A stretch of DNA of 64,000 nucleotides from Candidatus Zambryskiibacteriota bacterium (GCA_003173855.1 PPGI01000010.1:148696-212695); one strand, 5' to 3'; counted from the stretch's first letter, positions 4,852 to 54,597 are shown. The notes: generated by a model not told the origin, from the sequence alone. A program made the numbers and translations.

Positions 4852-6216
4852 CTATTTAGGTAAAACTTCTGCTCCTTCTTCTCGATCGTTAACTAAAAAA
4901 CCAAGTTCTTCAATTTGCGCTCGAATCTCATCACTAGTTTTAAAATCTTTATTTTTTCGAGCTTCCTCACGTTTTAAAATCATATCTTTAATATGTTCAG
5001 GAATTTCAAAATCCTCTTTTTTATCAAGCTTTAATCCTAAAATTTTATCAAAATTTAAAATTGTAGATTTTTTGCCTATCGCATGTTCATCACGAAGTAA
5101 TTCAGAAATAAGGGCAATGACTTTTGCCGTATCAAGATCATCATTAACAAAACTTTCAAATTTACTTTTATAGGCTTCGTTTATTTCACTGGAGTCATTA
5201 AGTTCACCAATTTTCATTCTTAAACGTTTCAAGGCATTTTGAGCTCCCTCTAATGCTTCCCAGCTGAATTGAAGTTGGGAAGAGTATCGGGCAGTCAAAA
5301 ATAAATATCTCAAAGCTAGGGGATCAACATTTTTTTCTCGCAGAGTCTCTAATGTTATGTAATTTCCTTCTGACTTTGCCATTTTGGCAGAATTAACATT
5401 TAAAAAGGCATTGTGAAGCCAATAGTTTGCAAGTGGAACACCATAAGCAGATTCGGATTGAGCAATTTCGTTATTGTGATGAACTGGAATGTGATCAATT
5501 CCACCTGTGTGAATATCAAAAGGCTGTCCAAGATATTTTCGTGACATTGCCGAACATTCAATATGCCATCCCGGGAAGCCTTTGCCGAACGGAGCATCGT
5601 ATCCAAGCTCATTGTTAAATTTCCATAGAGCAAAGTCACGAGGATTTTTCTTTTCAGGATTTAGACCAATCCTACTTTTTTCCACATCCGAAAGATTTAT
5701 TTTTCCAAGTTTTCCGTAATCTTTGTACTTCGATATATCGAAGTACAGCCCATCAGAAGTATTATAAGTTATTCCTTTTTCAATAAGTTTTTCAATTATT
5801 TCAATATCTTCTTTTATATGATCACTTGCAAAAGGGAAGTGCTCTGGAGTTTCAATGTTTAAGGCATTCAAATCCTCTTTAAATTTTAAAAAATAAAAAT
5901 CTGCCACTTCTCGCATAGCTTCAAGCGTTATCGGTTTTCCTTCTCGTTTGAGTGCTTTGGTCATTTTATCCTCACCAGAATCCTCATCACTTGAGAGATG
6001 GCCAATATCTGTAATGTTTATTACCTGATCTACTTTATATCCGTTGTATTCAAACATTCTGCGCAAAATATCAGCAAAAACATAGCTGCGAAGATTGCCA
6101 ATATGAGCGTAATCGTAAACAGTCGGTCCACAATTATAAATTCCGATTAAATTTTCATTAATCGATTTAAATTTTTCTTTCTTTCCGGAAAGAGTATTTT
6201 CTAAAAAAATATCCAT
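4852..6216 (-). CDS. cysS: cysteinyl-tRNA synthetase
   Basis: class I HIGH (HIGN) and KMSKS-type (KMAKS) motifs, CysRS-like zinc-binding cysteines. Confidence 0.95.
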
Positions 6217-6217
6217 G

Positions 6218-7051
6218 TTATCTTAATATCGCAATCAAAATACTTATTATAAATAGTACAGCGCCAATTAATGTCCAACGTTTGATAGTCTCATTTTGTT
6301 TAGCAGTAAGAAGGGAATTGTCTGTATCGCGTAGCTCTTTTAGCATATCCATGTTTGATTTAATTGTCGTATTGATCTTCAAATAATCAAGAATAATCGA
6401 ATCCATTTCTTTTGCAAAATCTTCGCCAAAAATTTCATTGCCACGACGTTTCAAAGTTTCCAAAATTTCGTGGTGTAAATCTGTCACTCGTTTGAATTCA
6501 AGTAGAGTTCTTGTAATTTCTGAAATAGAAACAACCATTTGGCGCTCTTTATTTTCAAAAATTTCTTTGGTAATTTTCTCAATATTGTCCTCAATTGCTT
6601 CGAGCTCTTCAAAAACACTGTTATATAACTCGCGAAGCATTCTAACAAAAATTTTATGTGAGCCAGAAGTTTGATTATTTTCCAAGATCTCTTCAACTTC
6701 CAAATCTTTGCCAAGTTTGTGCAAGGCATCAATTGTGTCATATCGTGCAGTAATCAGTGCGTCTTTACCAACAATAAAATCAATTTCTTGGTTTGATTCT
6801 GCAGAATGTGTGTGTTTCCAAGCAGGGAAATGAAGAATTAAATATACATATTCCTCGTGAAATTCGATTCGGGGTTTTGGCGTTGCTGCAGTCAACTCCT
6901 TAGCCACAAACGGATGAATGTTGTATTTGTCCATTAAGGAGTGGATTTCTTCCGGAGTGCCGTGATCAATATCAATCCATGTTTCTCCACCCAATTTGTA
7001 AGTTTTTATCATAACCAAATTATATAGAAAAATTAACTTATTGACCACCAC
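6218..7051 (-). CDS. CorA-like Mg2+ transporter family protein (atypical: single C-terminal TM, no GMN motif)
   Basis: N-terminal CorA cytoplasmic-domain-like sequence (TWIDIDHGTPEEIHSL...FVAKEL); ends with one hydrophobic helix; stop overlaps cysS start. Confidence 0.5.
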   Translation of the reverse strand: MVVNKLIFLYNLVMIKTYKLGGETWIDIDHGTPEEIHSLMDKYNIHPFVAKELTAATPKPRIEFHEEYVYLILHFPAWKHTHSAESNQEIDFIVGKDALITARYDTIDALHKLGKDLEVEEILENNQTSGSHKIFVRMLRELYNSVFEELEAIEDNIEKITKEIFENKERQMVVSISEITRTLLEFKRVTDLHHEILETLKRRGNEIFGEDFAKEMDSIILDYLKINTTIKSNMDMLKELRDTDNSLLTAKQNETIKRWTLIGAVLFIISILIAILR

Positions 7052-7057
7052 ATTTTT

Positions 7058-8305
7058 TTGCGAGATAATGTATTAAATATGGAAGTTTTCAAGTTTCGCG
7101 CTTACATTATTGGTGGTCTCCTAATTCTCGGGGCCGTATTTTTTTCAGGATTCTACATTGGTGATCAATCAGGCAAGCATTCAATTGCCCAATCTATTAT
7201 TTTAAATTCTACGTCGACAGATGAGACTATTGATTTTGCACCATTTTGGAAGGTCTGGAATGCTATAAACGAAAAATATATTCCAACAAACAGTACATCA
7301 ACTAACAGTGTGGTTTCAAACCAAACTCGGGTTTATGGAGCAATTTCTGGAATGGTTGACTCGCTTGGCGATCCTTACACAGTATTTTTCCCACCGGTTG
7401 AAGCGAAACAATTTAGTCAAGAAATTGGCGGCCAAATTGAGGGTGTTGGAATGGAAGTCGACGTTGTTGACGGAGTCTTAACAGTTATTTCTCCTGTAAA
7501 AGGCACTCCGGCATACAATGCTGGCATGAAAACTGGAGATAAGATTTTAAAAATTAATGATACAATTACAACAGGACTAACTACACAACAAGCAATAAAT
7601 ATTATTCGAGGCAAAAAAGGAACATCAGTCACGCTCACAGTTTCCCGCACGGAGATTAAGGATCCATTCCAAGTAACAATGGTTCGTGATGTTATAAATC
7701 TTCCTACAGTTGATACAGATACAAAAGGTGATGTCTTTATCATTAAACTTTACAGTTTTTCAGCAATTTCACCGAATTTGTTTCGTGATGCTCTCAGATC
7801 ATTTGTTCAATCAGGAAAATCTAAATTAATCATTGATTTGCGCGGGAATCCGGGCGGTTATCTTGAAGCGGCTCAAGATATTGCTTCGTGGTTCCTGCCA
7901 ACAGGGGATGTGGTTGTAAAAGAAGAATTCCGTGATCCAAATGATGAGCAAATTTATCGTTCAAAAGGTTACAATATTTTCAATGATCAATTAAAACTTG
8001 TTATTTTAATTGATGGCGGTTCGGCTAGTGCTTCAGAAATTCTTGCCGGTGCATTGCATGACCATGGCATTGCCACTCTTATTGGCGCACAGTCATTTGG
8101 TAAAGGTTCTGTTCAGGAACTTGTGCAGATTACATCTGATACTTCTCTAAAAGTAACCATTGCAAAGTGGCTCACACCAAACGGCATTTCTATTTCACAT
8201 CAAGGTTTGACTCCGGATATTGCTGTTAAGCTCGATGAGGATGCTTTTAAGAAGGGTAACGATACCCAATTAAACAAAGCATTAGAATTCCTAAGCTCAA
8301 AATAA
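7058..8305 (+). CDS. ctpA: carboxyl-terminal processing protease (S41, PDZ domain)
   Basis: N-terminal TM, PDZ (GMKTGDKILKIND), S41 motifs IIDLRGNPGGYL and GGSASASEILAG; start may be the ATG at 7079. Confidence 0.85.
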   Translation: MRDNVLNMEVFKFRAYIIGGLLILGAVFFSGFYIGDQSGKHSIAQSIILNSTSTDETIDFAPFWKVWNAINEKYIPTNSTSTNSVVSNQTRVYGAISGMVDSLGDPYTVFFPPVEAKQFSQEIGGQIEGVGMEVDVVDGVLTVISPVKGTPAYNAGMKTGDKILKINDTITTGLTTQQAINIIRGKKGTSVTLTVSRTEIKDPFQVTMVRDVINLPTVDTDTKGDVFIIKLYSFSAISPNLFRDALRSFVQSGKSKLIIDLRGNPGGYLEAAQDIASWFLPTGDVVVKEEFRDPNDEQIYRSKGYNIFNDQLKLVILIDGGSASASEILAGALHDHGIATLIGAQSFGKGSVQELVQITSDTSLKVTIAKWLTPNGISISHQGLTPDIAVKLDEDAFKKGNDTQLNKALEFLSSK

Positions 8306-43721: not shown

Positions 43722-44099
43722 TTATTTCTTTTCGGCTATCTTGCGGCCCGTACCCATAGTTTTCTTAGCACCACGTCTAGTTCGAGCATTTGTTTTTGTT
43801 CTCTGTCCTCGTGATGGAAGGCCACGCTGATGTCGCATTCCTCGATAAGTTTTAATATCTTTTAGTCGCTTAATATTTCCAGCAACTTCACGTTTTAAAT
43901 CTCCCTCAATTTTGAAAGTCTCGATTGCTTTTCTGATTGCATTCTCCTGATCAACAGTAAGCTCTCGAGGCTTTACTCCATAAGAAACTTTGGCCATATC
44001 CAAAATTTTATGAGCTCGTGGTCGACCAACTCCGTAAAGGATGGTCAAGCCAATTTCAATTCTTTTTTCTTCTGGGATTGTAATTCCTGCTACTCGCAT
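43722..44099 (-). CDS. rpsM: 30S ribosomal protein S13
   Basis: MRVAGITIPEEKRIEIGLTxIYGVG. Confidence 0.95.
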   Translation of the reverse strand: MRVAGITIPEEKRIEIGLTILYGVGRPRAHKILDMAKVSYGVKPRELTVDQENAIRKAIETFKIEGDLKREVAGNIKRLKDIKTYRGMRHQRGLPSRGQRTKTNARTRRGAKKTMGTGRKIAEKK

Positions 44100-44111
44100 A
44101 TTAAATATAAT

Positions 44112-44228
44112 TTATCCTTGGCGTTGTTTGTGGCGTGCATTAGCTTTGCATACAACATAAACATAGCCCTTCCTTCGAACGACCTGACAATAGGAACACA
44201 TCTTTTTTACTGAAGATTTTACTTTCAT
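44112..44228 (-). CDS. rpmJ: 50S ribosomal protein L36
   Basis: manual translation of minus strand: [38 protein letters not shown] (38 aa); below the ORF-track length cutoff. Confidence 0.85.
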
Positions 44229-44236
44229 ATATTCAG

Positions 44237-44458
44237 CTAAACTCGTTTTACGATGCGGCCCTTTCCACCGTATGGATCGACCTCAACCACAACTTTGTCT
44301 CCTATCAAAACTCGTATCTTATGCAATCTCATTTTTCCTGACAAATAAGTGAGCATTTCCTCTCCATTATCATCCCTTTTTACTTTAAAGAAAGTGTTGG
44401 GTAAAGTTTCAATAACTTGTGCTTCGATTGTAGATAGTTTTTTATTCTGATCTTGCAT
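44237..44458 (-). CDS. infA: translation initiation factor IF-1
   Basis: S1-like OB fold, 73 aa, canonical IF-1 sequence. Confidence 0.9.
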
Positions 44459-44534
44459 TAAATTAACACTTACCCAAAAGGGCGTGTAATAAAGGCATAT
44501 TACAAAATATGGCTATATAAGTCAACACATTTTC

Positions 44535-45905
44535 CTAACTAGGGATAGTATTAACAATTGTCACCTTTTTAGGATCATTTGGGATAGTTTGATTCCAGAA
44601 TGGTCGAGTGACAACCCAGGCTTCTTGAATACTTGGGTAGCTGCCGATAACTACTTTGGCATTTTGCTTAGATAGACCTAAAAGATCAGTTTTAAGCTTA
44701 TTTTGATCATAAATCCAGACTATATTTGGCTGACCAGAAAGGTTAAATGTAACTTGAGATGTATTGTTTGAAATACTCGTTGAAGCTGTCTGGTAGCTGA
44801 ATTTAAGATTATCAAGATTAGTAATCTTAACCATACTTGCATCTGTTTGAGGTAAAATTTGAGCGAGTATTGCTTTAGTTAAAAGCGCTCTGTCAAAAAT
44901 AACTGCAGTGGCAACGCCTGATTTTTTAAGGACAGGCCCGGTTTGCGTATTGGCTTCGGTCACGGGATCAAGGTCATAAACAAGACTTTCTTTGTAAAGA
45001 ACAAAGTTTGCGGGAATTTGGGCAGTGATATCACGAGAAAGCGAATCTTTAAGTGAAGCGCTCATTTGTGATTCTGATTGACTCATTACGTCTTTTGAGA
45101 AAACTTTTTGAGTACCGGAAAAACCACCAGTCATTTCTGTTTTTGATCTCGCATAAATTTTTGTATATTTTGGATCGCCCTTTAGCCCTGGAAGAGTGAA
45201 ATCTTTGAGTCCAATGTTGTATTCTTGACCAGCCTTATCAGCAATAACAGAGGCCTCAACTGACCCTGCAACAGTAGTCCCATTTTTAGTTTCCATTCCT
45301 GGAATAATAATTGGATTTATAGCTCGAAAAATCAATCCTTCTGGGGTTTGGAATCTCGTCGTGGCTACCAATTTTTGCGGTTCAGTTGAATAATTATTGT
45401 AAATAACAATTTTTCCGGTAGCTTTTTGGTTTACTATTTGCTCGGAAGTAGCCAAAGTCGGATCGAGATCTTTTTCTACATCTTTGTTCACTGTAACAAC
45501 TTGGAATCCCAAATTTGCTGCAACATCATTTTTTGCAGTAAATATGCTGTTTAAATTTTTCACATCTTGTTTTGGTGTAATAGTAACTTCTGCACTTTTA
45601 AATAATGTAGAAATTCCAAATGCAACAATCATAACTAGAAGGGTACCTGCGATATAAAGCCATTTTTTTGATTTCTTTTTTGGTTCATCGTATTCATATT
45701 TGTACGATGGAATTTCCACTCTAGGTTTAGGTACCTGCACTTGTGGCACTTCTACCTCTTCTTTTTCCTTAATTACTTCCTTTTTTATAGTGATTTTTGT
45801 CCTCTTAGGAGGTTCATCGACGACAGTACGCTTTTTAGACGCAATTTCTATATTTCTTATAGACTTTTTTGGAGGAATAATGTCCTGAACTGGCTCTTTT
45901 TTCAT
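44535..45905 (-). CDS. hypothetical membrane-anchored protein with Lys-rich cytoplasmic N-terminus
   Basis: K/E/P-rich low-complexity N-terminus, single TM, ~350 aa extracytoplasmic domain. Confidence 0.5.
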   Translation of the reverse strand: MKKEPVQDIIPPKKSIRNIEIASKKRTVVDEPPKRTKITIKKEVIKEKEEVEVPQVQVPKPRVEIPSYKYEYDEPKKKSKKWLYIAGTLLVMIVAFGISTLFKSAEVTITPKQDVKNLNSIFTAKNDVAANLGFQVVTVNKDVEKDLDPTLATSEQIVNQKATGKIVIYNNYSTEPQKLVATTRFQTPEGLIFRAINPIIIPGMETKNGTTVAGSVEASVIADKAGQEYNIGLKDFTLPGLKGDPKYTKIYARSKTEMTGGFSGTQKVFSKDVMSQSESQMSASLKDSLSRDITAQIPANFVLYKESLVYDLDPVTEANTQTGPVLKKSGVATAVIFDRALLTKAILAQILPQTDASMVKITNLDNLKFSYQTASTSISNNTSQVTFNLSGQPNIVWIYDQNKLKTDLLGLSKQNAKVVIGSYPSIQEAWVVTRPFWNQTIPNDPKKVTIVNTIPS

Positions 45906-45961
45906 ACTTTTTCCATTTTAACTCACTGTTTGCTCTTTGCCAAGAATTTATTGTTGAGAAA

Positions 45962-47161
45962 CTAGTTGCGCATCATTTTGCTATAAAAAATTGCTAAAAT
46001 TGCGATAAATGAATCAACTACATTTGAAGATGCATTTTTATAAAAAGGTGAAAGCAATTTATTATTTATATTTACAATATCCACATTTTTCCTAAAGTTT
46101 TGAGTCTGGTCATTTTTTGTAAGTTTTAAAAACTTACAGTATAGATCAAGAATATCCTCATCAGCTGTTAAATAAATTCTCCCTGGGAGAAAATAATTGG
46201 GATCAAGTTCACTTAACGCCTGTTCAAGATAAATACTCCATTCTTTTTCTATATCAGAAATAATACTTTGCATTTTTTCAATATGTTCGGGATCAAGTTT
46301 TTCTAGTATGTATAAATGAAGTGTTGATTCAGCCAGCTCATATGTTGTATTTAGCGATTTTGCAATATGTCTCATTGCAAAATTTCTGCCGGAGGGGATT
46401 GTCACAGTTTGCATTATTACTTCATCCCGAACAAGAGTTATATCAGTAACTTCACTAGAAATATCCATGATTAAAAAATCACTGTAATTAATAAATATAT
46501 CGCGAAAAGCAGCAAACTCAATAAACGGAAAGGTATGCATTATGATTTTTTCTTTAGGAATATGCGTGTGTTTTAAAACAACTTGAGAAATAATATCGAG
46601 TGTTCTTTTTTCCAATACTGACATGAATAAATAAGCGTCTAACTGGGTAGCTTTTTTACCAATACTATTTTTTAACGGGTAACCGTTAATTTTTGTATTA
46701 ATGATGCTTGATTCAATAATTTCAAAATCCTCATCCTCATCTAGATTTTTTCTAAGCTCGTTTTCAAATGATGTACTTTCTTTATTGATAATATCTTCTA
46801 AAAAATTCTCGCTAATTACAAAAGGAACCTCTTGAGAAAGATTTAAACACATAGTTTTTGAATAAAACCATGGAGAGGAAAAGGAAAAGACAACGTGGGC
46901 AATTCTCTTTTCTTTATTTTTTAAAAAAGCGCTATTTAATCCTTCTTCAACCAATTTTTTAAAAGTTGAATCAAGATTCTCTAGAAGAATTTTTAAAAGT
47001 TCCTTGACTTGAGATTTTGGAAGAATTGGAAAAACGGATTTTGCCACATAAACAAATGTCGGTAATTCTGATTTAGAAAATACAACAATACTTCCTGTAA
47101 TACTTCCATTTCCAATATCAATAAGAATTGATATTTCTTCTTTTTCCTTCCCAAATAACAT
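45962..47161 (-). CDS. actin-fold ATPase, FtsA/PilM-like (divergent)
   Basis: phosphate-1 like ILIDIGNGSITGS and DISSEVTDITLV...IPSGRNF resembling FtsA/PilM ATPase motifs. Confidence 0.4.
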   Translation of the reverse strand: MLFGKEKEEISILIDIGNGSITGSIVVFSKSELPTFVYVAKSVFPILPKSQVKELLKILLENLDSTFKKLVEEGLNSAFLKNKEKRIAHVVFSFSSPWFYSKTMCLNLSQEVPFVISENFLEDIINKESTSFENELRKNLDEDEDFEIIESSIINTKINGYPLKNSIGKKATQLDAYLFMSVLEKRTLDIISQVVLKHTHIPKEKIIMHTFPFIEFAAFRDIFINYSDFLIMDISSEVTDITLVRDEVIMQTVTIPSGRNFAMRHIAKSLNTTYELAESTLHLYILEKLDPEHIEKMQSIISDIEKEWSIYLEQALSELDPNYFLPGRIYLTADEDILDLYCKFLKLTKNDQTQNFRKNVDIVNINNKLLSPFYKNASSNVVDSFIAILAIFYSKMMRN

Positions 47162-47165
47162 TTCT

Positions 47166-48479
47166 CTATTCTAACACAGCCTTGAATTTCTTTTCTCCGC
47201 CTTTTCTAGAGAGTTCTTGATGTTTTTTTAATTCATTAAAAAAGCCTTCCTCATCTATAGTACAATTATTTTCAAGTGCCAACTCTTTTATAAGTTCAAA
47301 TGGATAACCGTAGGTTGAGTACAACAAAAATGCCTTTTCTGCTGAAATAGAGCCGCCTTTTCTTAGATTTTGTTCAAGTATTTTTTTACCGGATTGAAGG
47401 GTTTTTAGAAATTTAATTTCTTCTTGATTTATAGTCTCACTTATTTCTGATGCTTTTTTATCTAATTCATAATCTGTTCCTGTGTAAACAGGAATAACAT
47501 AATCAATTAATTCAGACAATTTACTAGTAGAACCAAGTGAATTATAGTAATAAATCGCACGTCTTAATAATCTTCTCAAAATATAGCCTCTACCAGTGTT
47601 CGCCGGTTTAACAGAATCTGCAATCATAAAAGTTGAGGTGCGAATATGATCTGCAACGATCCGCATCCCTTTAATATCTTTTGATTTTGAATTTTCTTTT
47701 ATTTTTTGCATTACTGGATAGAATAAGTCAGTATCAAAAATATTATCTTTACCTTGAATAACCATAACTAATCGTTCTAAACCTGAACCCGTGTCAACAT
47801 TTTTTTGTTCAAGTGTGCCAGTAACTTTTCCATCTTTTTTCAGATACTGCATAAAAACATCATTCCATATTTCAACCACTTTTTGTTCATCATCGGCTTT
47901 TATATATTCCTCTTTTGTTAAATCCCCTAATCCATCCTTTGTAATGTCATAAAACATTTCTGTGTCAGGTCCACAAGGACCATTGTCGCCTACACTCCAC
48001 CAATTCGATTTAGCTCCCATAAAATAAATTCGATTTTCCGGTACAAATTTTTTCCATATCTCAAAGGCTTCAGTATCTTTTAGAGCATTTTCATCACCCT
48101 CAAAAACAGTTACATATAAGCGTTTAGGATCGAGACCAAATCCTTCAGTTTTAGATGTTAGAAGCTCATAACTCCATTTAATAGCTTCTTCTTTAAAATA
48201 ATCTCCGAGAGACCAGTTACCAAGCATTTCAAAAAAAGTATCATGAGTGTTGTCTCCAACTTCCAAAATATCTTGAGTCCGGACACATTTTTGAGAATTA
48301 ACCAATTTCCTCCCATCTGGATGGTTTTTCCCAAGAAGATAAGGGATTAATGGTTGCATTCCGGCAGTCGTAAATAAAACAGAATCTGTTTCGGGTATTA
48401 AAGAAGCTGATGGAATAATCACGTGCCCACGTTTTTTGAAAAATTCTAAAAATTTCTGTCGAACCTCGTTTGAATTCAT
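47166..48479 (-). CDS. alaS: alanyl-tRNA synthetase, catalytic fragment only (437 aa; no editing or C-Ala domain)
   Basis: AlaRS N-terminus FLEFFKKRGH...FTTAGMQP...CVRTQD...FFEMLGNWSLGDYFK; ends after tRNA-recognition region. Confidence 0.8.
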   Translation of the reverse strand: MNSNEVRQKFLEFFKKRGHVIIPSASLIPETDSVLFTTAGMQPLIPYLLGKNHPDGRKLVNSQKCVRTQDILEVGDNTHDTFFEMLGNWSLGDYFKEEAIKWSYELLTSKTEGFGLDPKRLYVTVFEGDENALKDTEAFEIWKKFVPENRIYFMGAKSNWWSVGDNGPCGPDTEMFYDITKDGLGDLTKEEYIKADDEQKVVEIWNDVFMQYLKKDGKVTGTLEQKNVDTGSGLERLVMVIQGKDNIFDTDLFYPVMQKIKENSKSKDIKGMRIVADHIRTSTFMIADSVKPANTGRGYILRRLLRRAIYYYNSLGSTSKLSELIDYVIPVYTGTDYELDKKASEISETINQEEIKFLKTLQSGKKILEQNLRKGGSISAEKAFLLYSTYGYPFELIKELALENNCTIDEEGFFNELKKHQELSRKGGEKKFKAVLE

Positions 48480-49084
48480 TTATATTTTTTTAGAATTTGA
48501 AAATCTTCCATTAACGTTTCTCGATTTGAACTGTTGTAAAGCGCTACAGCTGGATGATAAAACGGGATAATAGTAACTTTGCCATACTTTGTATCAGCTA
48601 CAAACTCTTTGCCGTGAATTTGAGTTATAGATCTAATCATATCCTTAAGGCCAAAATGTTCAAGTATATAGGCCATTGAAAACCGACCAAGTGTTGCAAT
48701 AACTTTCGGTTCAATAATTTCAATTTGGCGATCAAGAAATGGTGAGTAGAGCTTAATTTCTTCTTCTGCTGGATCGCGATTTTCTGGCGGGCGATCCTTA
48801 ACTACATTTGTAATGTATACATTACTGCGATTTAGATTAATTGACGCGAGCATTTCATCCAAAAGTTTTCCTGATCTGCCGCAGAATGGCCGTGCTGTTT
48901 CCGCTTCCGATTTTCCCGGAGCTTCCCCGATAAACATTATTTTTGCAGCGTGACTTCCCTCTCCAACAACAGGAAAATACTTATTTTTTCGTCTATATTC
49001 GTAAAGCGGTGACTCTTTAAAATTGACTAATTCGTCACGAATTTGCTTCATTTGATTGAATTTATGATCCGGAGCAAAAGACAT
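48476..49084 (-). CDS. uracil-DNA glycosylase, family 4
   Basis: GEAPG..E...ARPFCGRSG motif (family 4 GEGPG/ PFVG-like), HPAVALY; start taken at internal Met to avoid overlap. Confidence 0.8.
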   Translation of the reverse strand: MSFAPDHKFNQMKQIRDELVNFKESPLYEYRRKNKYFPVVGEGSHAAKIMFIGEAPGKSEAETARPFCGRSGKLLDEMLASINLNRSNVYITNVVKDRPPENRDPAEEEIKLYSPFLDRQIEIIEPKVIATLGRFSMAYILEHFGLKDMIRSITQIHGKEFVADTKYGKVTIIPFYHPAVALYNSSNRETLMEDFQILKKYK

Positions 49085-49089
49085 GCGAG

Positions 49090-49695
49090 TTATTTTATGT
49101 ATTTTTTCTTCCAAACAACAGAATTTTTTGGAAACCACCAATTATTTGAATCAATATCAGTTATTGCACGGGCAAGATCTTTGCCTTGCGGTGTTTTTAA
49201 TCGCTCAACTGCTCTCTGCATCCATTCAAAAGCTCTGGTATTGCCTGTATCTACTTCTTCCTTAAGAGAAAGAATCCACTCTAAATTATCGGCATCCTTA
49301 ACCAAAAGAGCTTCTTTTGATTCTCTTTTTTCATATTCTTCCAAAGTATTGAACATGTCTTTGCCAAACGGCACAGAATCAGAAATATCTTTGACAGCAC
49401 TATGCTCGCGTCGTTCAACATATTTTTGATGAATATGATTTAAATCAGAAATTCTAGTTTCTGAAATATCGTGAAAAAGGCACATTTTTAAAACCTTAAG
49501 TACATCAACTGTGCCATCCATTTGGGCTAGAGCATACCCAATAAAGGCCACGCGATTTACATGCTCTGCTACTGACTGTTTTCCTGTGCCTAGAAAATGA
49601 AATCCGCTTCGTGGAGTTTTTGCAAGCATGCCAACTTCAAACAGAAAATTTACAATGTCTCTATTTGCATTTCGATCTAATTTCCCTTTTTTCAT
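49090..49695 (-). CDS. HD-domain phosphohydrolase, YfbR-like 5'-deoxynucleotidase
   Basis: H..R motif (AEHVNRVAFIG) and HD motif (LFHDISE). Confidence 0.75.
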   Translation of the reverse strand: MKKGKLDRNANRDIVNFLFEVGMLAKTPRSGFHFLGTGKQSVAEHVNRVAFIGYALAQMDGTVDVLKVLKMCLFHDISETRISDLNHIHQKYVERREHSAVKDISDSVPFGKDMFNTLEEYEKRESKEALLVKDADNLEWILSLKEEVDTGNTRAFEWMQRAVERLKTPQGKDLARAITDIDSNNWWFPKNSVVWKKKYIK

Positions 49696-50540
49696 TATAG
49701 TGAATCGATTTCATCCATTACCTTTGTAATTTTCTCCTGATTTAATCCAATTTCTCGTAATAAATCGGGTTTTGACTGGATCGTTTTGCATAATATCACA
49801 CCTTGATCAAGTAGAGCTTTTTTCTCGTGGCCATTTAAACTTACGAGACAAGTTAGCGGATGAAGTTTAGATTCCAAAATCATATCGTGCAAATTACCTT
49901 TTGGGGGATAATTCCAGCCGATCATCACTAGCCCACCCTGGCACGAGCCGTATTCAATTGCCGAAGATGTAAACTTAGTGTTTGTTATTAACCAACCTTC
50001 ATCAAGTTTCCTTTTTTGGCCAGGCTCGGCACCATAGTCAAATGTCATTTCGCGTAAATCATCAAATCGAGCCTTAACATAAAGTGCCACTTTTAGATCA
50101 GATTTTATTCCAAGCTCATTATGGAATTTTGCTTCAACCATAAGCAACTTTTCCTTGTTCCAGGCGATGACATCAATTTCGTGCTCAACACAAAATCCGC
50201 GTACAATTTTTCCAGTTTCAGTTGTAAAACCGCGCTCTTTAAAAATCTCTGCAACAAAATCTTCAAATGGAAAACCTGATGGTCCAAGCTCTTGAATAGC
50301 TCGTTTTAGTGAGTACCGAAGTGCAATTGGCTTCTCATTTTTATGTAAAAGCTCAAAAGCATGTTTATAAATCTCATGGGTTGTTGTGTTTTGCTCTAGA
50401 TGAGCCTTGAGGTGAGCAATAATATCAAAAACTATTTTTGATGAGGCTCCAGCACGTTTCAGAGAGTATTCCAATTTTTCAGGATCAAATAATTCGCGTG
50501 TTCCATCAGCTTTGAGAACATATATCTGTTCAGAATTCAT
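49695..50540 (-). CDS. ATP-cone domain fused to PD-(D/E)xK (Mrr-like) restriction-endonuclease-fold domain
   Basis: N-terminal ATP-cone pattern IYVLKADGTRELFDPEKLEYSLKRAG; C-terminal EIDVIAW...MVEAKF nuclease core. Confidence 0.6.
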   Translation of the reverse strand: MNSEQIYVLKADGTRELFDPEKLEYSLKRAGASSKIVFDIIAHLKAHLEQNTTTHEIYKHAFELLHKNEKPIALRYSLKRAIQELGPSGFPFEDFVAEIFKERGFTTETGKIVRGFCVEHEIDVIAWNKEKLLMVEAKFHNELGIKSDLKVALYVKARFDDLREMTFDYGAEPGQKRKLDEGWLITNTKFTSSAIEYGSCQGGLVMIGWNYPPKGNLHDMILESKLHPLTCLVSLNGHEKKALLDQGVILCKTIQSKPDLLREIGLNQEKITKVMDEIDSL

Positions 50541-50559
50541 ATGAGGATTATCTCACAAA

Positions 50560-50603
50560 ATTTTATTAAAACGAAAACCCAGCACTAGATTACAAGTGCT
50601 GGG
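50560..50603 (-). terminator. Rho-independent terminator
   Basis: cccagcact-(8 nt)-agtgctggg 9-bp stem followed on minus strand by UUUUCGUUUU. Confidence 0.7.
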
Positions 50604-50620
50604 CACTAATCAATCGTACA

Positions 50621-50851
50621 TCATATGGAACATTGTTCATGTTGAAGTATCTCCTGTCGAAGTCCTTCATCAGGAAGAAAGTCTTCGAGTTTTTTCCCTT
50701 CTTTGCTTACAAGATATATTGCTCTGGCAGCTTTCGCACAAACTTTAACAGTCCCACAACCTGGTTCTTGATTCACGAGTTCAAGCCATTCTCCGATTGC
50801 TCCTGATGCCGTCCTTGGCAAACTCATAAGAAACTTCCAATCTTTTATCAC
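50621..50851 (-). CDS. hypothetical small protein (76 aa)
   Basis: downstream of mnmA on same strand, followed by terminator. Confidence 0.4.
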   Translation of the reverse strand: MIKDWKFLMSLPRTASGAIGEWLELVNQEPGCGTVKVCAKAARAIYLVSKEGKKLEDFLPDEGLRQEILQHEQCSI

Positions 50852-50882
50852 CTTAACATTTTATTTGCCTGAACCCAAATTA

Positions 50883-52031
50883 TCACACTTCCTCTATTAT
50901 TCCTCCGCAAAGACAAACTTCGCCATCATAAAGTACTGTTGATTGGCCAACTGCCACTCCGTTTTGAGGATTGTCAAAAATAATATGGTAGCCATCTGAT
51001 TTTTTTTCGAGTGAGCAATTTTGTTTTTCCTGACGATATCTGATTCGAACAGAAGTTCTAACAGGCAGTTGAGGTTCTTTGCCTGAAATAAAATGTAGAT
51101 CTTTAACAACAATTTCTTTTGCAGAATATACTTTATCAGATTCTGTTTCCTTGTCTGCAACTGTAATGGTATTTTTCTCTAAATCTTTTGCTATAACAAA
51201 GTATCGCGGGTCATTTGGTGATTTTTTTGTAATTCTAAAGCCATGTCTCTCACCTATCGTATAAAGTATTGCTCCATCATGTTCACCAATAACCTCGCCT
51301 TGAGTGTTTAAAACTTTACCAGGCAAAGTTTTAATGTAATGCAATAAAAACTCTTTCATATCAACTTTTCCAATAAAACAAAGTCCTTGGCTATCCTTTT
51401 TCTCTGCTGTTGGTAATCCAAACTTTTTTGCAAGCATTCTAACTTCTGGTTTTGTCATTCCCCCAACAGGAAAAAGTGCACGACTTAATTGATCTTGATT
51501 TAAGGTGTAGAGAAAATATGATTGATCTTTATTTTTATCAACTGATTCTAAAAGTTGGTATTCTAACTCCGTTGAGTCAGAACTTTTTATAGGGGTTAGG
51601 GGTAGGGTCTGGCCTATCAAAAGTTCTGACGAATAAGGAGTTCGAACTTGTGCATAATGTCCAGTAGCAATAAAATCAGCTCCCATTTCCATTGCTTTTT
51701 TCAAAAACACTCCAAATTTTACATATTTATTGCAAAAAACGTCTGGATTAGGCACTCGACCAGCAGAATATTCGCGAATCATATAATCAACAACTTCTTG
51801 TTTGTATTCGATTTGGCAATCTAGAGTTATGAATGGTACATCTAATGTTGCACAAACTCGCATTGCACTTCGTCTCTCTTCTCGCCAATCGCAAAGTATG
51901 AAATCTGGATGCCAAACTTTTAAAAAAACTCCTGTAACATCAAAACCTTGTTCTTTAAGCAACGCCAAAGAAACAGAGCTATCTACTCCGCCAGAAACTC
52001 CAACAAAAACTTTTTTTCTTTTATTTTCCAT
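50883..52031 (-). CDS. mnmA: tRNA-specific 2-thiouridylase
   Basis: PP-loop VFVGVSGGVDSSVS, catalytic Cys region. Confidence 0.9.
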   Translation of the reverse strand: MENKRKKVFVGVSGGVDSSVSLALLKEQGFDVTGVFLKVWHPDFILCDWREERRSAMRVCATLDVPFITLDCQIEYKQEVVDYMIREYSAGRVPNPDVFCNKYVKFGVFLKKAMEMGADFIATGHYAQVRTPYSSELLIGQTLPLTPIKSSDSTELEYQLLESVDKNKDQSYFLYTLNQDQLSRALFPVGGMTKPEVRMLAKKFGLPTAEKKDSQGLCFIGKVDMKEFLLHYIKTLPGKVLNTQGEVIGEHDGAILYTIGERHGFRITKKSPNDPRYFVIAKDLEKNTITVADKETESDKVYSAKEIVVKDLHFISGKEPQLPVRTSVRIRYRQEKQNCSLEKKSDGYHIIFDNPQNGVAVGQSTVLYDGEVCLCGGIIEEV

Positions 52032-52069
52032 AATAACAGTTCAGGGGTCATGCTTGTGCGTGACCCCTG

Positions 52070-52363
52070 TTAAGTAAGGAGGGAAATGATCTTTGTAAAC
52101 AAGGTGTCTTTAAGAAAATCTTTTTGATTCCCGTTCTGACTGACCTTGTAATACACTGAACAAATCCCAGTATTGTACTCTCCTTTCGCCACCATATTTT
52201 CAAAAAGGCATCCTTCACCGTGCGGAGAATAACAAAAAACTGAACCATCTCTCGCAATTGTGATCAATTGCTTCTCCTTGAAGAGTGTATGACAGTGATC
52301 ACAAGCTGTCACGTTTCCATAATAGACACCATTTAAAGTTTTATCACCATTTGGCACATGCAT
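52070..52363 (-). CDS. hypothetical Cys/His-rich small protein
   Basis: CDHCH...CYSPHGEGC...C pattern suggests metal binding; no family assigned. Confidence 0.4.
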   Translation of the reverse strand: MHVPNGDKTLNGVYYGNVTACDHCHTLFKEKQLITIARDGSVFCYSPHGEGCLFENMVAKGEYNTGICSVYYKVSQNGNQKDFLKDTLFTKIISLLT

Positions 52364-52390
52364 GCCTCCGAACAGAACTATACCATAAAT

Positions 52391-53353
52391 TTAATTAAGG
52401 TACAGCTCAGCGTTCCGCTTATGTTGCTCAAAAGTTTGGGCATAATGAATTGTCCCATCACGGCTAGAAAGATAATAAAGATATTTTGTTGTAATCGGGT
52501 TAACTGCTGCAAAAAGCGCATCTACTCCTGGATTATCGATAGGCCCAGGCGGGAGACCTTTATATAAGTAAGTATTATAGGGAGAATTTATTTTTAAATC
52601 GTCAGCAGTCAATTGATAAGTATTTTTACCGTTTATGTAAAGAAATGTTGCATCGACTTGAAGTGGCATACCAAGTTGCAAGCGTTTCCATAAAATTCCA
52701 GCAATAATTCTCCTAGACTCTGTTGTTCGGGCTTCATTTTCTAAAATTGAGGCCATTGTGATTATGTCGCCGAGAGATTTTGTTGTTGTAGCAATTCCTG
52801 GAACACTTTTTATTTTTTCGTTAAATGTTTTCTCCATTTTATCAATCAGAACCTCTGGCTTAATTGTCGGAGAGACAAAATATGTATCAGGAAAAAGATA
52901 GCCTTCCTCTTTTTTTGCAATATTTAAAAAGCGTACTTGATTAAAATTAACCAAGTTTTTTTTAAGATAATCTGCAATTTGAGTGCTGTCCCATCCTTCA
53001 GGTATTGTAATTCTTGCTGTTGTTAAGTGAAAGCGGGCATGAACCAATCGATATGCAATATTTATTGGTCCGGCTTTTTCATCGAGCAAATAATCTCCAG
53101 CAATTACTCCCCTCTCGCCTCCTTGTAGAATAACTGCAGTTCGAAACCAAAAAGGCGATCGAATGATATGTAAACTTTCTAAATCGCTTGTTATCTTATC
53201 CAGTGACTCTCCGGAGTAAATTGTAACTACTTGACCCAAAGGAAATTCTTTTGGAACTTCAAAATAATATGAAAGTGCAGCGAATAAAATAAAAAGACCG
53301 GCAGATAGGAAAAGGATTTTTTTATTAGCTTCAAAAAATTTCTTGAATTCCAT
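52391..53353 (-). CDS. mltG: endolytic murein transglycosylase MltG (YceG-like)
   Basis: N-terminal TM, YceG domain with catalytic ILENEAR region. Confidence 0.85.
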   Translation of the reverse strand: MEFKKFFEANKKILFLSAGLFILFAALSYYFEVPKEFPLGQVVTIYSGESLDKITSDLESLHIIRSPFWFRTAVILQGGERGVIAGDYLLDEKAGPINIAYRLVHARFHLTTARITIPEGWDSTQIADYLKKNLVNFNQVRFLNIAKKEEGYLFPDTYFVSPTIKPEVLIDKMEKTFNEKIKSVPGIATTTKSLGDIITMASILENEARTTESRRIIAGILWKRLQLGMPLQVDATFLYINGKNTYQLTADDLKINSPYNTYLYKGLPPGPIDNPGVDALFAAVNPITTKYLYYLSSRDGTIHYAQTFEQHKRNAELYLN

Positions 53354-54597
53354 TATATTGGAATGTTGAATGGAGCCTCTGCTTTGCGAGATTCAATTCT
53401 AGCAAATGTTGGTGTAGTCGAAACTCCACCAGGGAAATGATACATGGTTGCCAGCTCTTCGGTGTTCAAAACGAAATATTTTTTATTATATGGTTTGTAA
53501 AAATAAGCTCGACGTTTGTAAGCATCAAGCAAATATTGCCTTGCTTTATTTTTTTTCTGATCGGAATACGCCATCCAAGGGAACCACTTGTAATTGTTTG
53601 GAATTCCACGTGCTGGCTTAAAACCATTTAGCGGTGAATTAAAATGCATTATCCCGCCAATTAAGCTCCCTATTCTAGAAGGATCAAAACTTTCTTTTGG
53701 TGAGATATACATCAGTCTAATGCCTGTATCAAAGCCGTTTTTGGAAACACTTCGAGCTAATGAAGTAATTTTTTCCTTATCAACATCATGAAGTGGGGCA
53801 CCTGTCCCAGGAATTACTTTGCCATCTGGGCCCTTCTCACCTTTCGCCGCATCTTGAATTTTTTTAATTTCTTCTTCAGCCCCTTTTTTCCATTTAAGAT
53901 CGGCGGCTTCACCTGTTTTTGGATCCTTATCTTCTTTTACGTGTGCCCGAATAATGATCTGAAGCCAAGCTTGCTCGCCGCGGCGAATTGCACCAAGTGC
54001 TTCAATCAATGGTGTTAATGGATCAATTTTAACTTCTTCTTTGGGATCTTTATCCATTCCATAATCAATATAGGTTTTTATCGGGAAATAATCTTTTTGA
54101 GTTAAATCAAATTCTGTAGCAAAAATATTATTTACTTCTGGATCAAAAACAACAGGCAATGTGTAATCTGGCACTTCGTATATTTCAATGCCGGGATATT
54201 GCGAGTAAAGATTAGCCTCAATTTGGCTCTTTGCTCCCTTTCTTGCCCAAATATAAAAGTGAACCGCTCCATCAATCGAAACAATTTCCAATGAAAACCA
54301 TGAACGAACTGATCCTTTCCAAAATTTTTCATACCAATTGCCTTCTCCAAGTGTAGAGTACAATCCAGAAATAAAAAATTCTGCAGCTTGTGGAGATTTG
54401 AAGATATCTTTTGGTAATTTTACTTCAAGCAATATATAAGTTTGAGCAGCAAAAAAAAGTGCTCGACGATATTGGACCCACAAATCCCAAAGAATTACTG
54501 CAGCGGCTGCCGGAACAAAAACATAAGCCGCATAATAGAGAATTTTGAAAGTAAGCAGCATTTGCGGGCTGCTAAATAGTTTAAAAATAGCGTTCAT
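53353..54597 (-). CDS. hypothetical membrane-anchored protein (414 aa)
   Basis: N-terminal TM; no motif recognised. Confidence 0.5.
   Translation of the reverse strand: MNAIFKLFSSPQMLLTFKILYYAAYVFVPAAAAVILWDLWVQYRRALFFAAQTYILLEVKLPKDIFKSPQAAEFFISGLYSTLGEGNWYEKFWKGSVRSWFSLEIVSIDGAVHFYIWARKGAKSQIEANLYSQYPGIEIYEVPDYTLPVVFDPEVNNIFATEFDLTQKDYFPIKTYIDYGMDKDPKEEVKIDPLTPLIEALGAIRRGEQAWLQIIIRAHVKEDKDPKTGEAADLKWKKGAEEEIKKIQDAAKGEKGPDGKVIPGTGAPLHDVDKEKITSLARSVSKNGFDTGIRLMYISPKESFDPSRIGSLIGGIMHFNSPLNGFKPARGIPNNYKWFPWMAYSDQKKNKARQYLLDAYKRRAYFYKPYNKKYFVLNTEELATMYHFPGGVSTTPTFARIESRKAEAPFNIPI

Follow-up and report, generated by a model that had tools for sequence, protein, structure and literature searches.

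Organization of the locus

The window analysed here, the whole 64-kb stretch of DNA from a Candidatus Zambryskiibacteriota bacterium, contains five tightly packed genes on the minus strand. The first (49695..50540) encodes a 281-aa protein with an ATP-cone, a PD-(D/E)xK nuclease core and an (HhH)2-like domain, here called the ATP-cone nuclease. It is followed by a 201-aa HD_3-family phosphohydrolase, a probable 5'-nucleotidase (HD; 49090..49695), a 202-aa family-4 uracil-DNA glycosylase (UDG4; 48476..49084), the 437-aa catalytic part of AlaRS (47166..48479; tRNA-synt_2c, E 3e-135) and an FtsA-like gene (45962..47161). The last of these lies 4 nt after AlaRS, has a weak Pfam match to FtsA and is syntenic in relatives. 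The nuclease stop and the HD start have one base in common (TAATG), 5 nt separate the HD stop from the UDG ATG at 49084, and the UDG stop and AlaRS start overlap by 4 nt (ATGA).

An earlier sequence-only reading had described the first three genes as an operon with a stop/start overlap or a 5-nt gap at the junctions. All three ORFs were found where it placed them, with the junctions as described, and profile searches agreed with each of its domain calls (ATP-cone plus Mrr-like nuclease, HD and family-4 UDG). The extent of the operon had to be revised. As the tight packing runs on into AlaRS and the FtsA-like gene, the three-gene set forms only part of a unit of five genes (50540 to 45962), which is headed by the nuclease gene and begins after a putative terminator. 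This terminator is a minus-strand hairpin (50577..50604) with a 10-bp stem, six G-C pairs and the tail TTTCGTTTTA; the nuclease ATG follows it at a distance of 37 nt, and it is the strongest terminator-like site within 44000-53500.

An extended -10-like element, TGaGATAAT (50547..50555, minus strand), ends 6 nt before the nuclease ATG and is recognized by its resemblance to the consensus only; the two-hexamer promoter scan did not report it. Tentatively, a leaderless start of the nuclease mRNA at this element is possible. The 342-nt gap upstream of the nuclease also contains a 76-aa ORF (50621-50851), which is probably non-coding, since it matched neither Pfam nor, by tblastn, any of 115 related loci. 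Rfam gave no match in the whole window at gathering thresholds or in 50500-50920 at E <= 1, and ARAGORN reported no tRNA or tmRNA genes in the window.

Domains and fold of the ATP-cone nuclease

The ATP-cone (PF03477) occupies aa 6-83 (50292..50525, minus strand) and scores 29.9 bits, a modest margin over the Pfam cut-off of 25.8. In a fold comparison this domain superposes on known ATP-cones, sharing their four-helix/beta-hairpin fold. The Mrr/AF1548-type PD-(D/E)xK core spans aa 89-207 (49920..50276, minus strand), and the C-terminal helical domain, aa 208-281 (49698..49919, minus strand), has a (HhH)2/SAM-like fold. In Pfam, Mrr_cat reaches 27.4 bits (cut-off 21) and AF1548-like_C covers aa 241-278, while aa 94-277 match AF1548 of Archaeoglobus fulgidus (PDB 1Y88) at E 1.9e-27. 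Both the profile hits and the homology to a protein of solved structure place it in the Mrr_cat/AF1548 type of PD-(D/E)xK nucleases. AF1548 combines Mrr_cat with AF1548-like_C but has no ATP-cone, and the match begins only at query residue 94. To our knowledge, AF1548 has no known function. The two motifs quoted in the earlier reading, VLKADGTRELFDPEKL in the ATP-cone and EIDVIAW...VEAKF in the core, are present in the protein.

Among 124 diverse family members, the catalytic residues E93, D123, E136 and K138 are invariant and form a complete E-D-ExK set, and the ATP-cone residues K10, G13, F18, K22, S26, T54 and Y76 reach a conservation of at least 90%. A junction motif, G86-P-x-G89-x-x-F92-E93, is also invariant. 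In ribonucleotide reductases and in the repressor NrdR, the ATP-cone is known as the ATP/dATP switch. The protein might be a DNA-binding regulator of the NrdR kind whose nuclease fold serves to bind DNA only, which we consider extremely improbable. Invariance of the four catalytic residues is unexpected for a non-catalytic scaffold, and none of the loci examined has a ribonucleotide reductase gene next to the nuclease. NrdR consists of a Zn-ribbon followed by an ATP-cone in about 150 aa, whereas the protein studied here has no Zn-ribbon; the NrdR model TIGR00244 gives 16.5 bits (cut-off 124.65) and aligns with the ATP-cone part alone. In NrdR and the reductases the output is a Zn-ribbon or a reductase; here it is a predicted nuclease. 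The architecture is most reasonably read as that of a nucleotide-sensing nuclease.

The nuclease family

The family comprises at least 433 clusters at 50% identity (E <= 1e-30), nearly all of about 280 aa and aligning end to end, and more than 6,600 clusters at 90% identity. Its architecture is fixed: an N-terminal ATP-cone, an Mrr/AF1548-type nuclease and a C-terminal (HhH)2/SAM-like domain. Thousands of genomes, representing at least three phyla, carry a member, a breadth judged from the source names and titles of sequence records, and free-living Bacteroidota are among the carriers. A literature search found no paper on a fusion of ATP-cone and nuclease; the only relevant item, from 2007, predicts AF1548 to be a nuclease of the restriction type.

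Some members carry the NCBI name 'restriction endonuclease'. Structural neighbours of the protein include Can2, Card1, NucC and Cap4, in which a sensor domain is likewise joined to a PD-(D/E)xK nuclease, and DndB, methylase or Upx-like genes lie 4-6 kb off in three loci. These observations would suit a nucleotide-sensing anti-phage nuclease (abortive-infection or restriction) triggered by a phage-induced ATP/dATP shift, much like the defence nuclease that the earlier reading had offered as its alternative. We regard this role as very improbable. Can2, Card1, Cap4 and NucC are ligand-activated effectors with CARF or SAVED sensors, whereas the ATP-cone nuclease has no methyltransferase, cyclase or CRISPR partner and is housekeeping-like, with conserved synteny. 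The best PADLOC match was only noise (E 0.0065, 13.6 bits). Relatives were absent from IMG/VR and from 50,697 phage records, and only two were found among 72,556 plasmids. Together with a fixed housekeeping position beside MnmA and a divergence like that of aminoacyl-tRNA synthetases, this makes a defence role unlikely. Nor does the protein resemble the type IV restriction enzymes Mrr, MspJI and AspBHI: in place of an N-terminal winged helix or SRA domain preceding Mrr_cat it has an ATP-cone, it lacks a modified-DNA reader, and its distribution is neither patchy nor linked to mobile elements.

The HD and UDG genes

The HD protein scores 95.7 bits (E 3.6e-27) against HD_3 and 44.4 bits against YfbR-like (cut-off 25.9) in Pfam, but falls below the cut-off of the NCBIfam YfbR equivalog model NF003009 (40.7 versus 122 bits). 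Because it passes both Pfam models and fails the equivalog model, it is assigned to the HD_3 family but not to the orthologues of YfbR. It is nearer to P. furiosus 1XX7 and human HDDC2, which it matches in the PDB together with AF1432 at E 1e-15 to 1e-13, than to YfbR (9e-5). The metal ligands of the H...HD...D pattern are present (H45, H75-D76 and D134), and E79 stands at the YfbR-like catalytic position. Both the above-cut-off Pfam matches and the H...HD...E...D residues are shared with the YfbR/HDDC2/YGK1 HD-domain 5'-nucleotidases.

The UDG gene scores 194.3 bits against the family-4 model TIGR00758 (cut-off 125.3), and its product, which carries the motifs GEAPG and HPA, best matches the Sulfolobus tokodaii UDG (PDB 4ZBX; E 1.6e-49). 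The S. tokodaii enzyme holds a 4Fe-4S cluster on four cysteines, whereas all four are replaced in the window protein (CKKC/VVKC/ACSP of 4ZBX read FKES/VVKD/LYSP). A longer ORF (48476-49141) opens at a TTG at 49141, a mere mechanical ORF start; alignments of homologues begin at about residue 16-31 of this longer ORF.

Gene neighbourhood in Paceibacteria

Gene order was examined in this window and in about 130 loci. In Paceibacteria the nuclease gene is part of a housekeeping block of at least 13 syntenic genes, with the order LeuRS, a sigma-like gene, DUF8128, YceG, MnmA, nuclease, a variable slot, AlaRS, an FtsA-like gene and, further on, infA and rpsM. In 57 of 71 loci, no more than 400 nt separate the nuclease from an upstream MnmA; this adjacency was rejected as a functional link, as it belongs to the same block synteny. 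In the 26 loci that carry all three genes, mean identity is 57.9% for the nuclease, 56.7% for MnmA and 53.9% for AlaRS. The nuclease is a chromosomal core-type gene in Paceibacteria that diverges as slowly as MnmA and AlaRS.

Downstream of the nuclease the gene content is less constant. HD follows it in only 10 of 87 Paceibacteria-type loci, every one at least 65% identical to the window protein, and UDG4 is found downstream in 45 of the 87. UDG4 directly adjoins the nuclease in 12 of 69 loci spanning 49-72% identity, and is an older yet loose neighbour. The slot between nuclease and AlaRS also houses a Cas4-like PDDEXK_1 protein with CxxC...CxxC (32 of 87 loci, in 21 of which it is the first downstream gene), for which no sequence match was found in the PDB, and an MGMT-type C-domain with PCHR (13 of 87). 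As MgtC (17), peptidase M3 (13), EamA and PCMT genes occur there too, the slot behaves partly as a variable insertion site.

The recurrence of UDG4, Cas4-like and MGMT-type genes beside the nuclease raises the possibility of a structure- or lesion-specific incision nuclease for DNA repair, working with these proteins and licensed by its ATP-cone to incise only when dNTPs (dATP) allow resynthesis. NucS and Hjc are also among the structural neighbours of the protein, and its C-terminal domain is similar to HhH modules found in RAD51 paralogues, Pol X, AlkA and FAAP24. Even so, this role seems unlikely, though well worth weighing: the adjacency of UDG4 is explicable by block synteny, the slot is shared with the other genes listed above, and in 13 contexts studied beyond the Paceibacteria block, repair genes are never adjacent. 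The repair-gene neighbourhood as a whole is confounded by block synteny.

Neither HD nor UDG was present in any of those 13 contexts. The order nuclease-HD-UDG is not kept beyond general synteny and close relatives, and the view of the three genes as a functional unit is correspondingly weak.

Gene neighbourhood outside the Paceibacteria block

In 8 of the 13 other contexts, a beta-CASP RNase gene lies directly downstream of the nuclease. At four of these loci (L028, L116, L117 and L118), the nuclease stop codon abuts or overlaps the beta-CASP start, and a 4-nt overlap of the two genes is also present in Criblamydia. The beta-CASP protein is a TTHA0252-type RNase (E 8e-68) with the RNA-type motif RMMBL. 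Three contexts, from three classes and two phyla, extend the order to nuclease, beta-CASP, archaeal-type AMP/thymidine phosphorylase and PRPP synthetase; their hosts are Arenibacter (Flavobacteriia, chromosome), Pontibacter (Cytophagia, plasmid) and Criblamydia (Chlamydiota, plasmid). The phosphorylase scores 602 bits against TIGR02645 (cut-off 435) and 493-507 against AMP_phos (cut-off 535), and the PRPP synthetase 397-401 bits against PRK07199 (cut-off 322). The pair is found in only three of the eight beta-CASP contexts. On the flanks of the module, Arenibacter and Criblamydia also carry phosphoketolase and acetate kinase genes. Searches of the 64-kb window by tblastn with beta-CASP, Usp, phosphorylase, PRPP synthetase, Cas4-like, MGMT and MgtC queries gave no match.

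The wider surroundings of the beta-CASP operons include Usp genes (7 contexts), HSP20, the hibernation factor S30AE, 2-hydroxyacid dehydrogenase, phosphoketolase and acetate kinase. With the RNA-type partner, they bring to mind an energy-stress factor that would cut RNA (e.g. rRNA or mRNA) together with the beta-CASP RNase at low ATP, within a dormancy or anoxia response. Can2 and Card1 cleave ssRNA besides DNA. We hold this role to be improbable, since an (HhH)2-like domain and an Mrr-type core are typical of DNA enzymes, and the Paceibacteria loci have neither the beta-CASP partner nor such stress genes.

The pointers to the substrate conflict: the beta-CASP partner is RNA-metabolising, whereas the HhH-like domain of the nuclease points to DNA.

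Proposed role of the nuclease

Across phyla, the neighbours of the ATP-cone nuclease include further nucleases and enzymes of nucleotide processing, suggesting that nucleic acids are broken down in step with the nucleotide pool. Our preferred reading, to which we give slightly less than even credence, is an adenine-nucleotide-gated, metal-dependent endonuclease that would make the initial cut in controlled nucleic-acid turnover and then hand over to partner enzymes. Its ATP-cone would bind adenine (deoxy)nucleotides, and these would control how active the protein is or how it oligomerises, as happens in ribonucleotide reductases and NrdR; NrdR ATP-cones work by nucleotide-dependent oligomerisation (PMC12176259). 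Can2, Card1, NucC and Cap4 offer a further mechanistic precedent, as structural neighbours that pair a sensor with a PD-(D/E)xK nuclease. We infer from the protein and its neighbours the nuclease activity, the gating and its direction, the substrate, for which the HhH-like domain would favour DNA, and the hand-over. Fragments would pass to a 5'-3' exonuclease, which may be the beta-CASP protein in Bacteroidota and Chlamydiota or the Cas4-like protein in many Paceibacteria. The resulting mononucleotides would be taken up by the archaeal-type AMP/thymidine phosphorylase and PRPP synthetase in Bacteroidota and Chlamydiota, and by the HD_3 nucleotidase in the sub-clade of this genome.

The earlier reading had linked the locus to nucleotide salvage in an organism that may lack de novo synthesis. 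The salvage idea is supported in part, with independent evidence from the phosphorylase/PRPP synthetase modules of distant relatives in Arenibacter, Pontibacter and Criblamydia. Patescibacteria are unable to make nucleotides de novo (PMC10633639), but this fails as a general reason, because free-living Bacteroidota carry the same nuclease family. According to Tn-seq data from a saccharibacterium, nucleotide supply seems not to depend on DNA uptake (PMC10633639), which counts against the turnover reading. The recurring neighbours in Paceibacteria, being repair enzymes (UDG4, MGMT-type and Cas4-like) and not nucleotide-catabolic ones, also run counter to turnover.

A bolder form of the turnover reading, which we find rather doubtful, would make the nuclease the pool-gated entry to a cross-phylum pathway from nucleic acid to nucleotides, pentose and ATP, and the missing regulated salvage nuclease of Paceibacteria. 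Such a pathway would run from the endonuclease through a 5'-3' exonuclease and an NMP phosphorylase or nucleotidase to PRPP and pentose metabolism, and then to phosphoketolase and acetate kinase. The plasmid modules of Pontibacter and Criblamydia and the chromosomal module of Arenibacter offer cultivable organisms for testing.

On the bolder reading, ATP-cone control would be shown for the first time in an enzyme that lies outside ribonucleotide-reductase metabolism. The union of an ATP-cone with a catalytically intact nuclease would extend ATP-cone allostery from the making of DNA precursors to the cutting of nucleic acids. For Patescibacteria, a core nuclease that responds to the nucleotide pool would be a testable candidate for matching turnover or repair to an unreliable precursor supply.

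Domain architecture of the nuclease

The ORF at 49695-50540 on the minus strand encodes a 281-aa protein that scores above the Pfam cut-offs for both an ATP-cone (aa 6-83) and Mrr_cat, and that also contains an AF1548-like C-terminal Pfam match. The fusion of these domains had been called in the sequence-only reading, and the call is borne out. Residues 94-277 match the structural-genomics protein AF1548 (PDB 1Y88) with an E-value of 1.9e-27. The catalytic triad of AF1548 was predicted in 2007 (PMC1821046), and its counterparts in the nuclease are D123, E136 and K138. These three residues and E93 are invariant in an alignment of 124 diverse family members, as is the junction motif G86-P-x-G89-x-x-F92-E93; nowhere is the family more conserved than at this joint between the ATP-cone and the nuclease core. 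The ATP-cone signature (K10, G13, F18, K22, S26, T54 and Y76) is kept in at least 90% of members. Judging from this residue conservation, the sensor and the catalytic site alike are under strong constraint, and it is highly improbable that the protein is a non-catalytic regulator.

The C-terminal part, aa 208-281, was modelled separately (pLDDT 85). Its fold is similar to that of RAD51-paralogue N-terminal domains, of HhH modules in Pol X, NusA, RNAP alpha-CTD and AlkA, and of SAM domains. The C-terminal domain is predicted from this model to have a (HhH)2/SAM-like fold, which usually serves in sequence-nonspecific DNA binding or in oligomerisation.

Every sequence and fold test applied places the nuclease in the ATP-cone and Mrr_cat/AF1548 families. 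Lacking a modified-DNA reader domain, it is not a Type IV restriction enzyme; lacking a Zn-ribbon, it is not NrdR either.

Size and distribution of the family

When 1.84 billion representatives were searched exhaustively with HMMER, at least 433 clusters were obtained (50% identity, E <= 1e-30), nearly all of about 280 aa and aligning end to end; at 90% identity, word-indexed searches gave over 6,600 clusters. The sources are named as Parcubacteria, Wolfebacteria, Zambryskibacteria and Paceibacteria, and also include the free-living Bacteroidota Arenibacter, Cyclobacteriaceae, Saprospiraceae and Bacteroidia. The gene is also found on two plasmids, one in Pontibacter and one in Criblamydia (Chlamydiota). 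Members are named in their sources only as 'ATP cone domain-containing protein' or 'restriction endonuclease', NCBIfam contains no model for the family, and a literature search found no paper on the ATP-cone/nuclease fusion. The gene is catalogued by domain annotation, yet uncharacterised.

Neither the IMG/VR viral contigs nor a set of 50,697 phage records yielded a relative. The nuclease resembles the sensor-plus-nuclease effectors Can2, Card1, Cap4 and NucC in layout only, and a role as a defence nuclease, which the sequence-only reading had offered as an alternative, is distinctly improbable. The protein is not a catalogued defence protein.

Gene organization in the window

The window (GC ~36%) has the appearance of a housekeeping stretch of a Parcubacteria/Paceibacteria-type chromosome. 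It encodes DnaB, several aminoacyl-tRNA synthetases, MurG, FtsW and DnaK, and the nearest homologues are all encoded in metagenome-assembled genomes of Parcubacteria/Patescibacteria. Searches of the whole 64 kb found neither a tRNA nor a tmRNA, nor any Rfam family at the gathering score.

The nuclease gene is followed by two further head-to-tail ORFs on the minus strand, as originally proposed; its stop codon shares one base with the start of the HD gene (49090-49695), the stop of which lies 5 nt from the ATG (49084) of the uracil-DNA glycosylase (UDG) gene (48476-49084). The tight packing extends further, since the UDG stop overlaps the alanyl-tRNA synthetase (AlaRS) start (ATGA) and an FtsA-like gene begins 4 nt after AlaRS. 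Upstream of the nuclease are a terminator-like hairpin and an extended -10-like element, TGaGATAAT. The transcription unit is therefore likely to comprise five genes with the nuclease first, rather than three.

Both upstream elements lie on the minus strand in the gap between MnmA and the nuclease (50541-50882), which is 342 nt long, against 6-100 nt in most relatives. The hairpin (50604-50577), the strongest terminator-like one of the region, lies towards the end of the gap. It is preceded by a 76-aa ORF (50621-50851) that has no Pfam match and no homologue in 115 loci, and Rfam gives no match across the gap, which may hold a small RNA peculiar to this lineage, or a remnant. The TGaGATAAT element (50547-50555) ends 6 nt ahead of the nuclease ATG with no Shine-Dalgarno sequence between, which suggests that the nuclease transcript may be leaderless.

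The HD ORF encodes an HD_3/YfbR-like HD phosphohydrolase that falls below the NCBIfam YfbR equivalog cut-off; its nearest solved structures are P. furiosus 1XX7, human HDDC2 and AF1432. The third ORF encodes a family-4 UDG that is closest to the S. tokodaii enzyme 4ZBX. All four 4Fe-4S cysteines of 4ZBX-type enzymes are replaced in it (FKES for CKKC, VVKD for VVKC and LYSP for ACSP) and both catalytic motifs, GEAPG and HPA, remain, so that it looks like a cluster-free family-4 UDG. Apart from these missing cysteines, the HD and UDG genes are ordinary for their families, and the sequence-only reading had assigned the domains of both correctly.

The AlaRS gene (47166-48479, minus strand) encodes only 437 aa, covering the catalytic and tRNA-recognition part, and ends 4 nt ahead of the next gene. 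Of 43 related loci, 38 have an AlaRS ORF of 573-628 aa that takes in the tRNA_SAD region; a separate copy of this region was not found within the 64-kb window. The FtsA-like gene (45962-47161, minus strand) diverges far faster than any other gene of the syntenic block, its median identity to relatives being 28% versus 52-68% for its neighbours, and matches Pfam FtsA only weakly (19 bits).

Neighbourhood in Paceibacteria

When the neighbours in the window were mapped onto 101 Paceibacteria-type loci, the region proved to be one syntenic block: LeuRS (p865), sigma-like/HARE-HTH, DUF8128, YceG, MnmA, nuclease, variable slot, AlaRS, FtsA-like, p456, infA and rpsM. MnmA lies at most 400 nt upstream of the nuclease in 57 of 71 loci, and AlaRS lies downstream in 43 of 52. 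Over the 26 loci with all of these genes, mean identity is 57.9% for the nuclease, 56.7% for MnmA and 53.9% for AlaRS; the nuclease does not diverge faster than its housekeeping neighbours.

All ORFs in the variable slot between nuclease and AlaRS were clustered and representatives were scanned against Pfam. An HD gene follows the nuclease within 2.5 kb in 7 of 69 loci and occurs anywhere in the slot in 10 of 87, in all of which nuclease identity is at least 65%. The family-4 UDG gene is present in 45 of 87 slots and directly adjoins the nuclease in 12 of 69 loci, spanning 49-72% identity. The neighbourhood is thus conserved in some related genomes, but HD is conserved only shallowly, the conservation of UDG is inseparable from the synteny of the block, and the three-gene salvage operon first proposed does not hold as a conserved unit.

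The slot also contains a Cas4-like PDDEXK_1 nuclease (~277 aa, CxxC...CxxC; 32/87 loci, and the first downstream gene in 21), MgtC (17/87), an MGMT C-domain protein of ~85 aa with a PCHR active site (13/87), peptidase M3 (13/87), DUF7282 (6/87) and PCMT (4/87). In many Paceibacteria the Cas4-like and MGMT C-domain-only genes lie between nuclease and UDG in a compact string with a DNA-repair flavour (for example L046, 6836-8535; L110, 1204-2034; L074, 8170-8418).

The main rival explanation, rather unlikely, is a nuclease that would make repair incisions only when dNTPs are available; it draws on the UDG, MGMT and Cas4-like neighbours in Paceibacteria together with a C-terminal domain of repair type.

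Gene modules beyond the Paceibacteria block

Thirteen distinct contexts outside the Paceibacteria block were compared, with neighbours annotated by Pfam or RefSeq. No HD_3 or UDG gene was found near the nuclease in any of the 13. In eight, the next gene encodes a beta-CASP metallo-beta-lactamase nuclease of 452-471 aa, the start of which touches or overlaps the nuclease stop codon in four (L028, L116, L117 and L118); in Criblamydia the two genes overlap by 4 nt. This partner belongs with the TTHA0252-type ribonucleases (E 8e-68). The pairs are usually surrounded by genes for Usp, HSP20, MlaEFD, TauE, 2-hydroxyacid dehydrogenase and P-type ATPase, and once by a hibernation-factor gene. In five Bacteroidota-type contigs (L028, L030, L116, L117 and L118; ~6001-8260 each) genes for Usp, HSP20, MlaEFD, TauE, 2-hydroxyacid dehydrogenase and K+ channels abound around the pair, forming what look like stress or dormancy islands.

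A four-gene order of nuclease, beta-CASP, a ~500-aa 'thymidine phosphorylase family protein' and ribose-phosphate pyrophosphokinase (PRPP synthetase) recurs in three lineages from three classes and two phyla, namely on an Arenibacter chromosome, a Pontibacter plasmid and a Criblamydia plasmid (L022, 6001-11141; L119, 1972-6597; L120, 5995-10602). In Arenibacter and Criblamydia the module is flanked by phosphoketolase and acetate kinase. On the archaeal-type model TIGR02645 the phosphorylase scores 602 bits, above the cut-off of 435, and it falls slightly under the AMP-phosphorylase equivalog (493-507 vs 535); the PRPP synthetase passes PRK07199. That this order persists across two phyla, and on plasmids, argues for a functional link much more strongly than does the synteny seen in Paceibacteria.

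Proposed function

Recurring across lineages are the ATP-cone nuclease, a second nuclease (beta-CASP or Cas4-like) and, in some, a mononucleotide enzyme, which is either the AMP/thymidine-type phosphorylase with PRPP synthetase or, in the sub-clade of the window, the HD_3 nucleotidase. Beta-CASP and Cas4-like nucleases are classes known for 5'-3' exonuclease activity. The simplest reading, held tentatively and as somewhat short of probable, is controlled nucleic-acid breakdown. The nuclease would cut endonucleolytically under the control of the adenine-nucleotide pool, exonucleases would trim the products, and the mononucleotides would then be processed for salvage, or for energy where phosphoketolase and acetate kinase occur. 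The initial idea of a nucleotide-linked nuclease is retained in this proposal. ATP-cones in NrdR and reductases work via nucleotide-dependent oligomerisation (PMC12176259), and by analogy we infer that the same may apply to this nuclease.

The HhH-like domain and Mrr-type core favour DNA as the substrate; the RNA-type beta-CASP partner favours RNA. RNA decay under energy stress is an improbable role for the nuclease.

If the ATP-cone does control the nuclease, the family would join ATP-cone allostery with ligand-gated restriction-fold nucleases. The family is very large, highly conserved and structurally well-defined, its pairing of sensor and effector is unusual, and, through the module shared across phyla, its function can be tested in bacteria that grow in culture.
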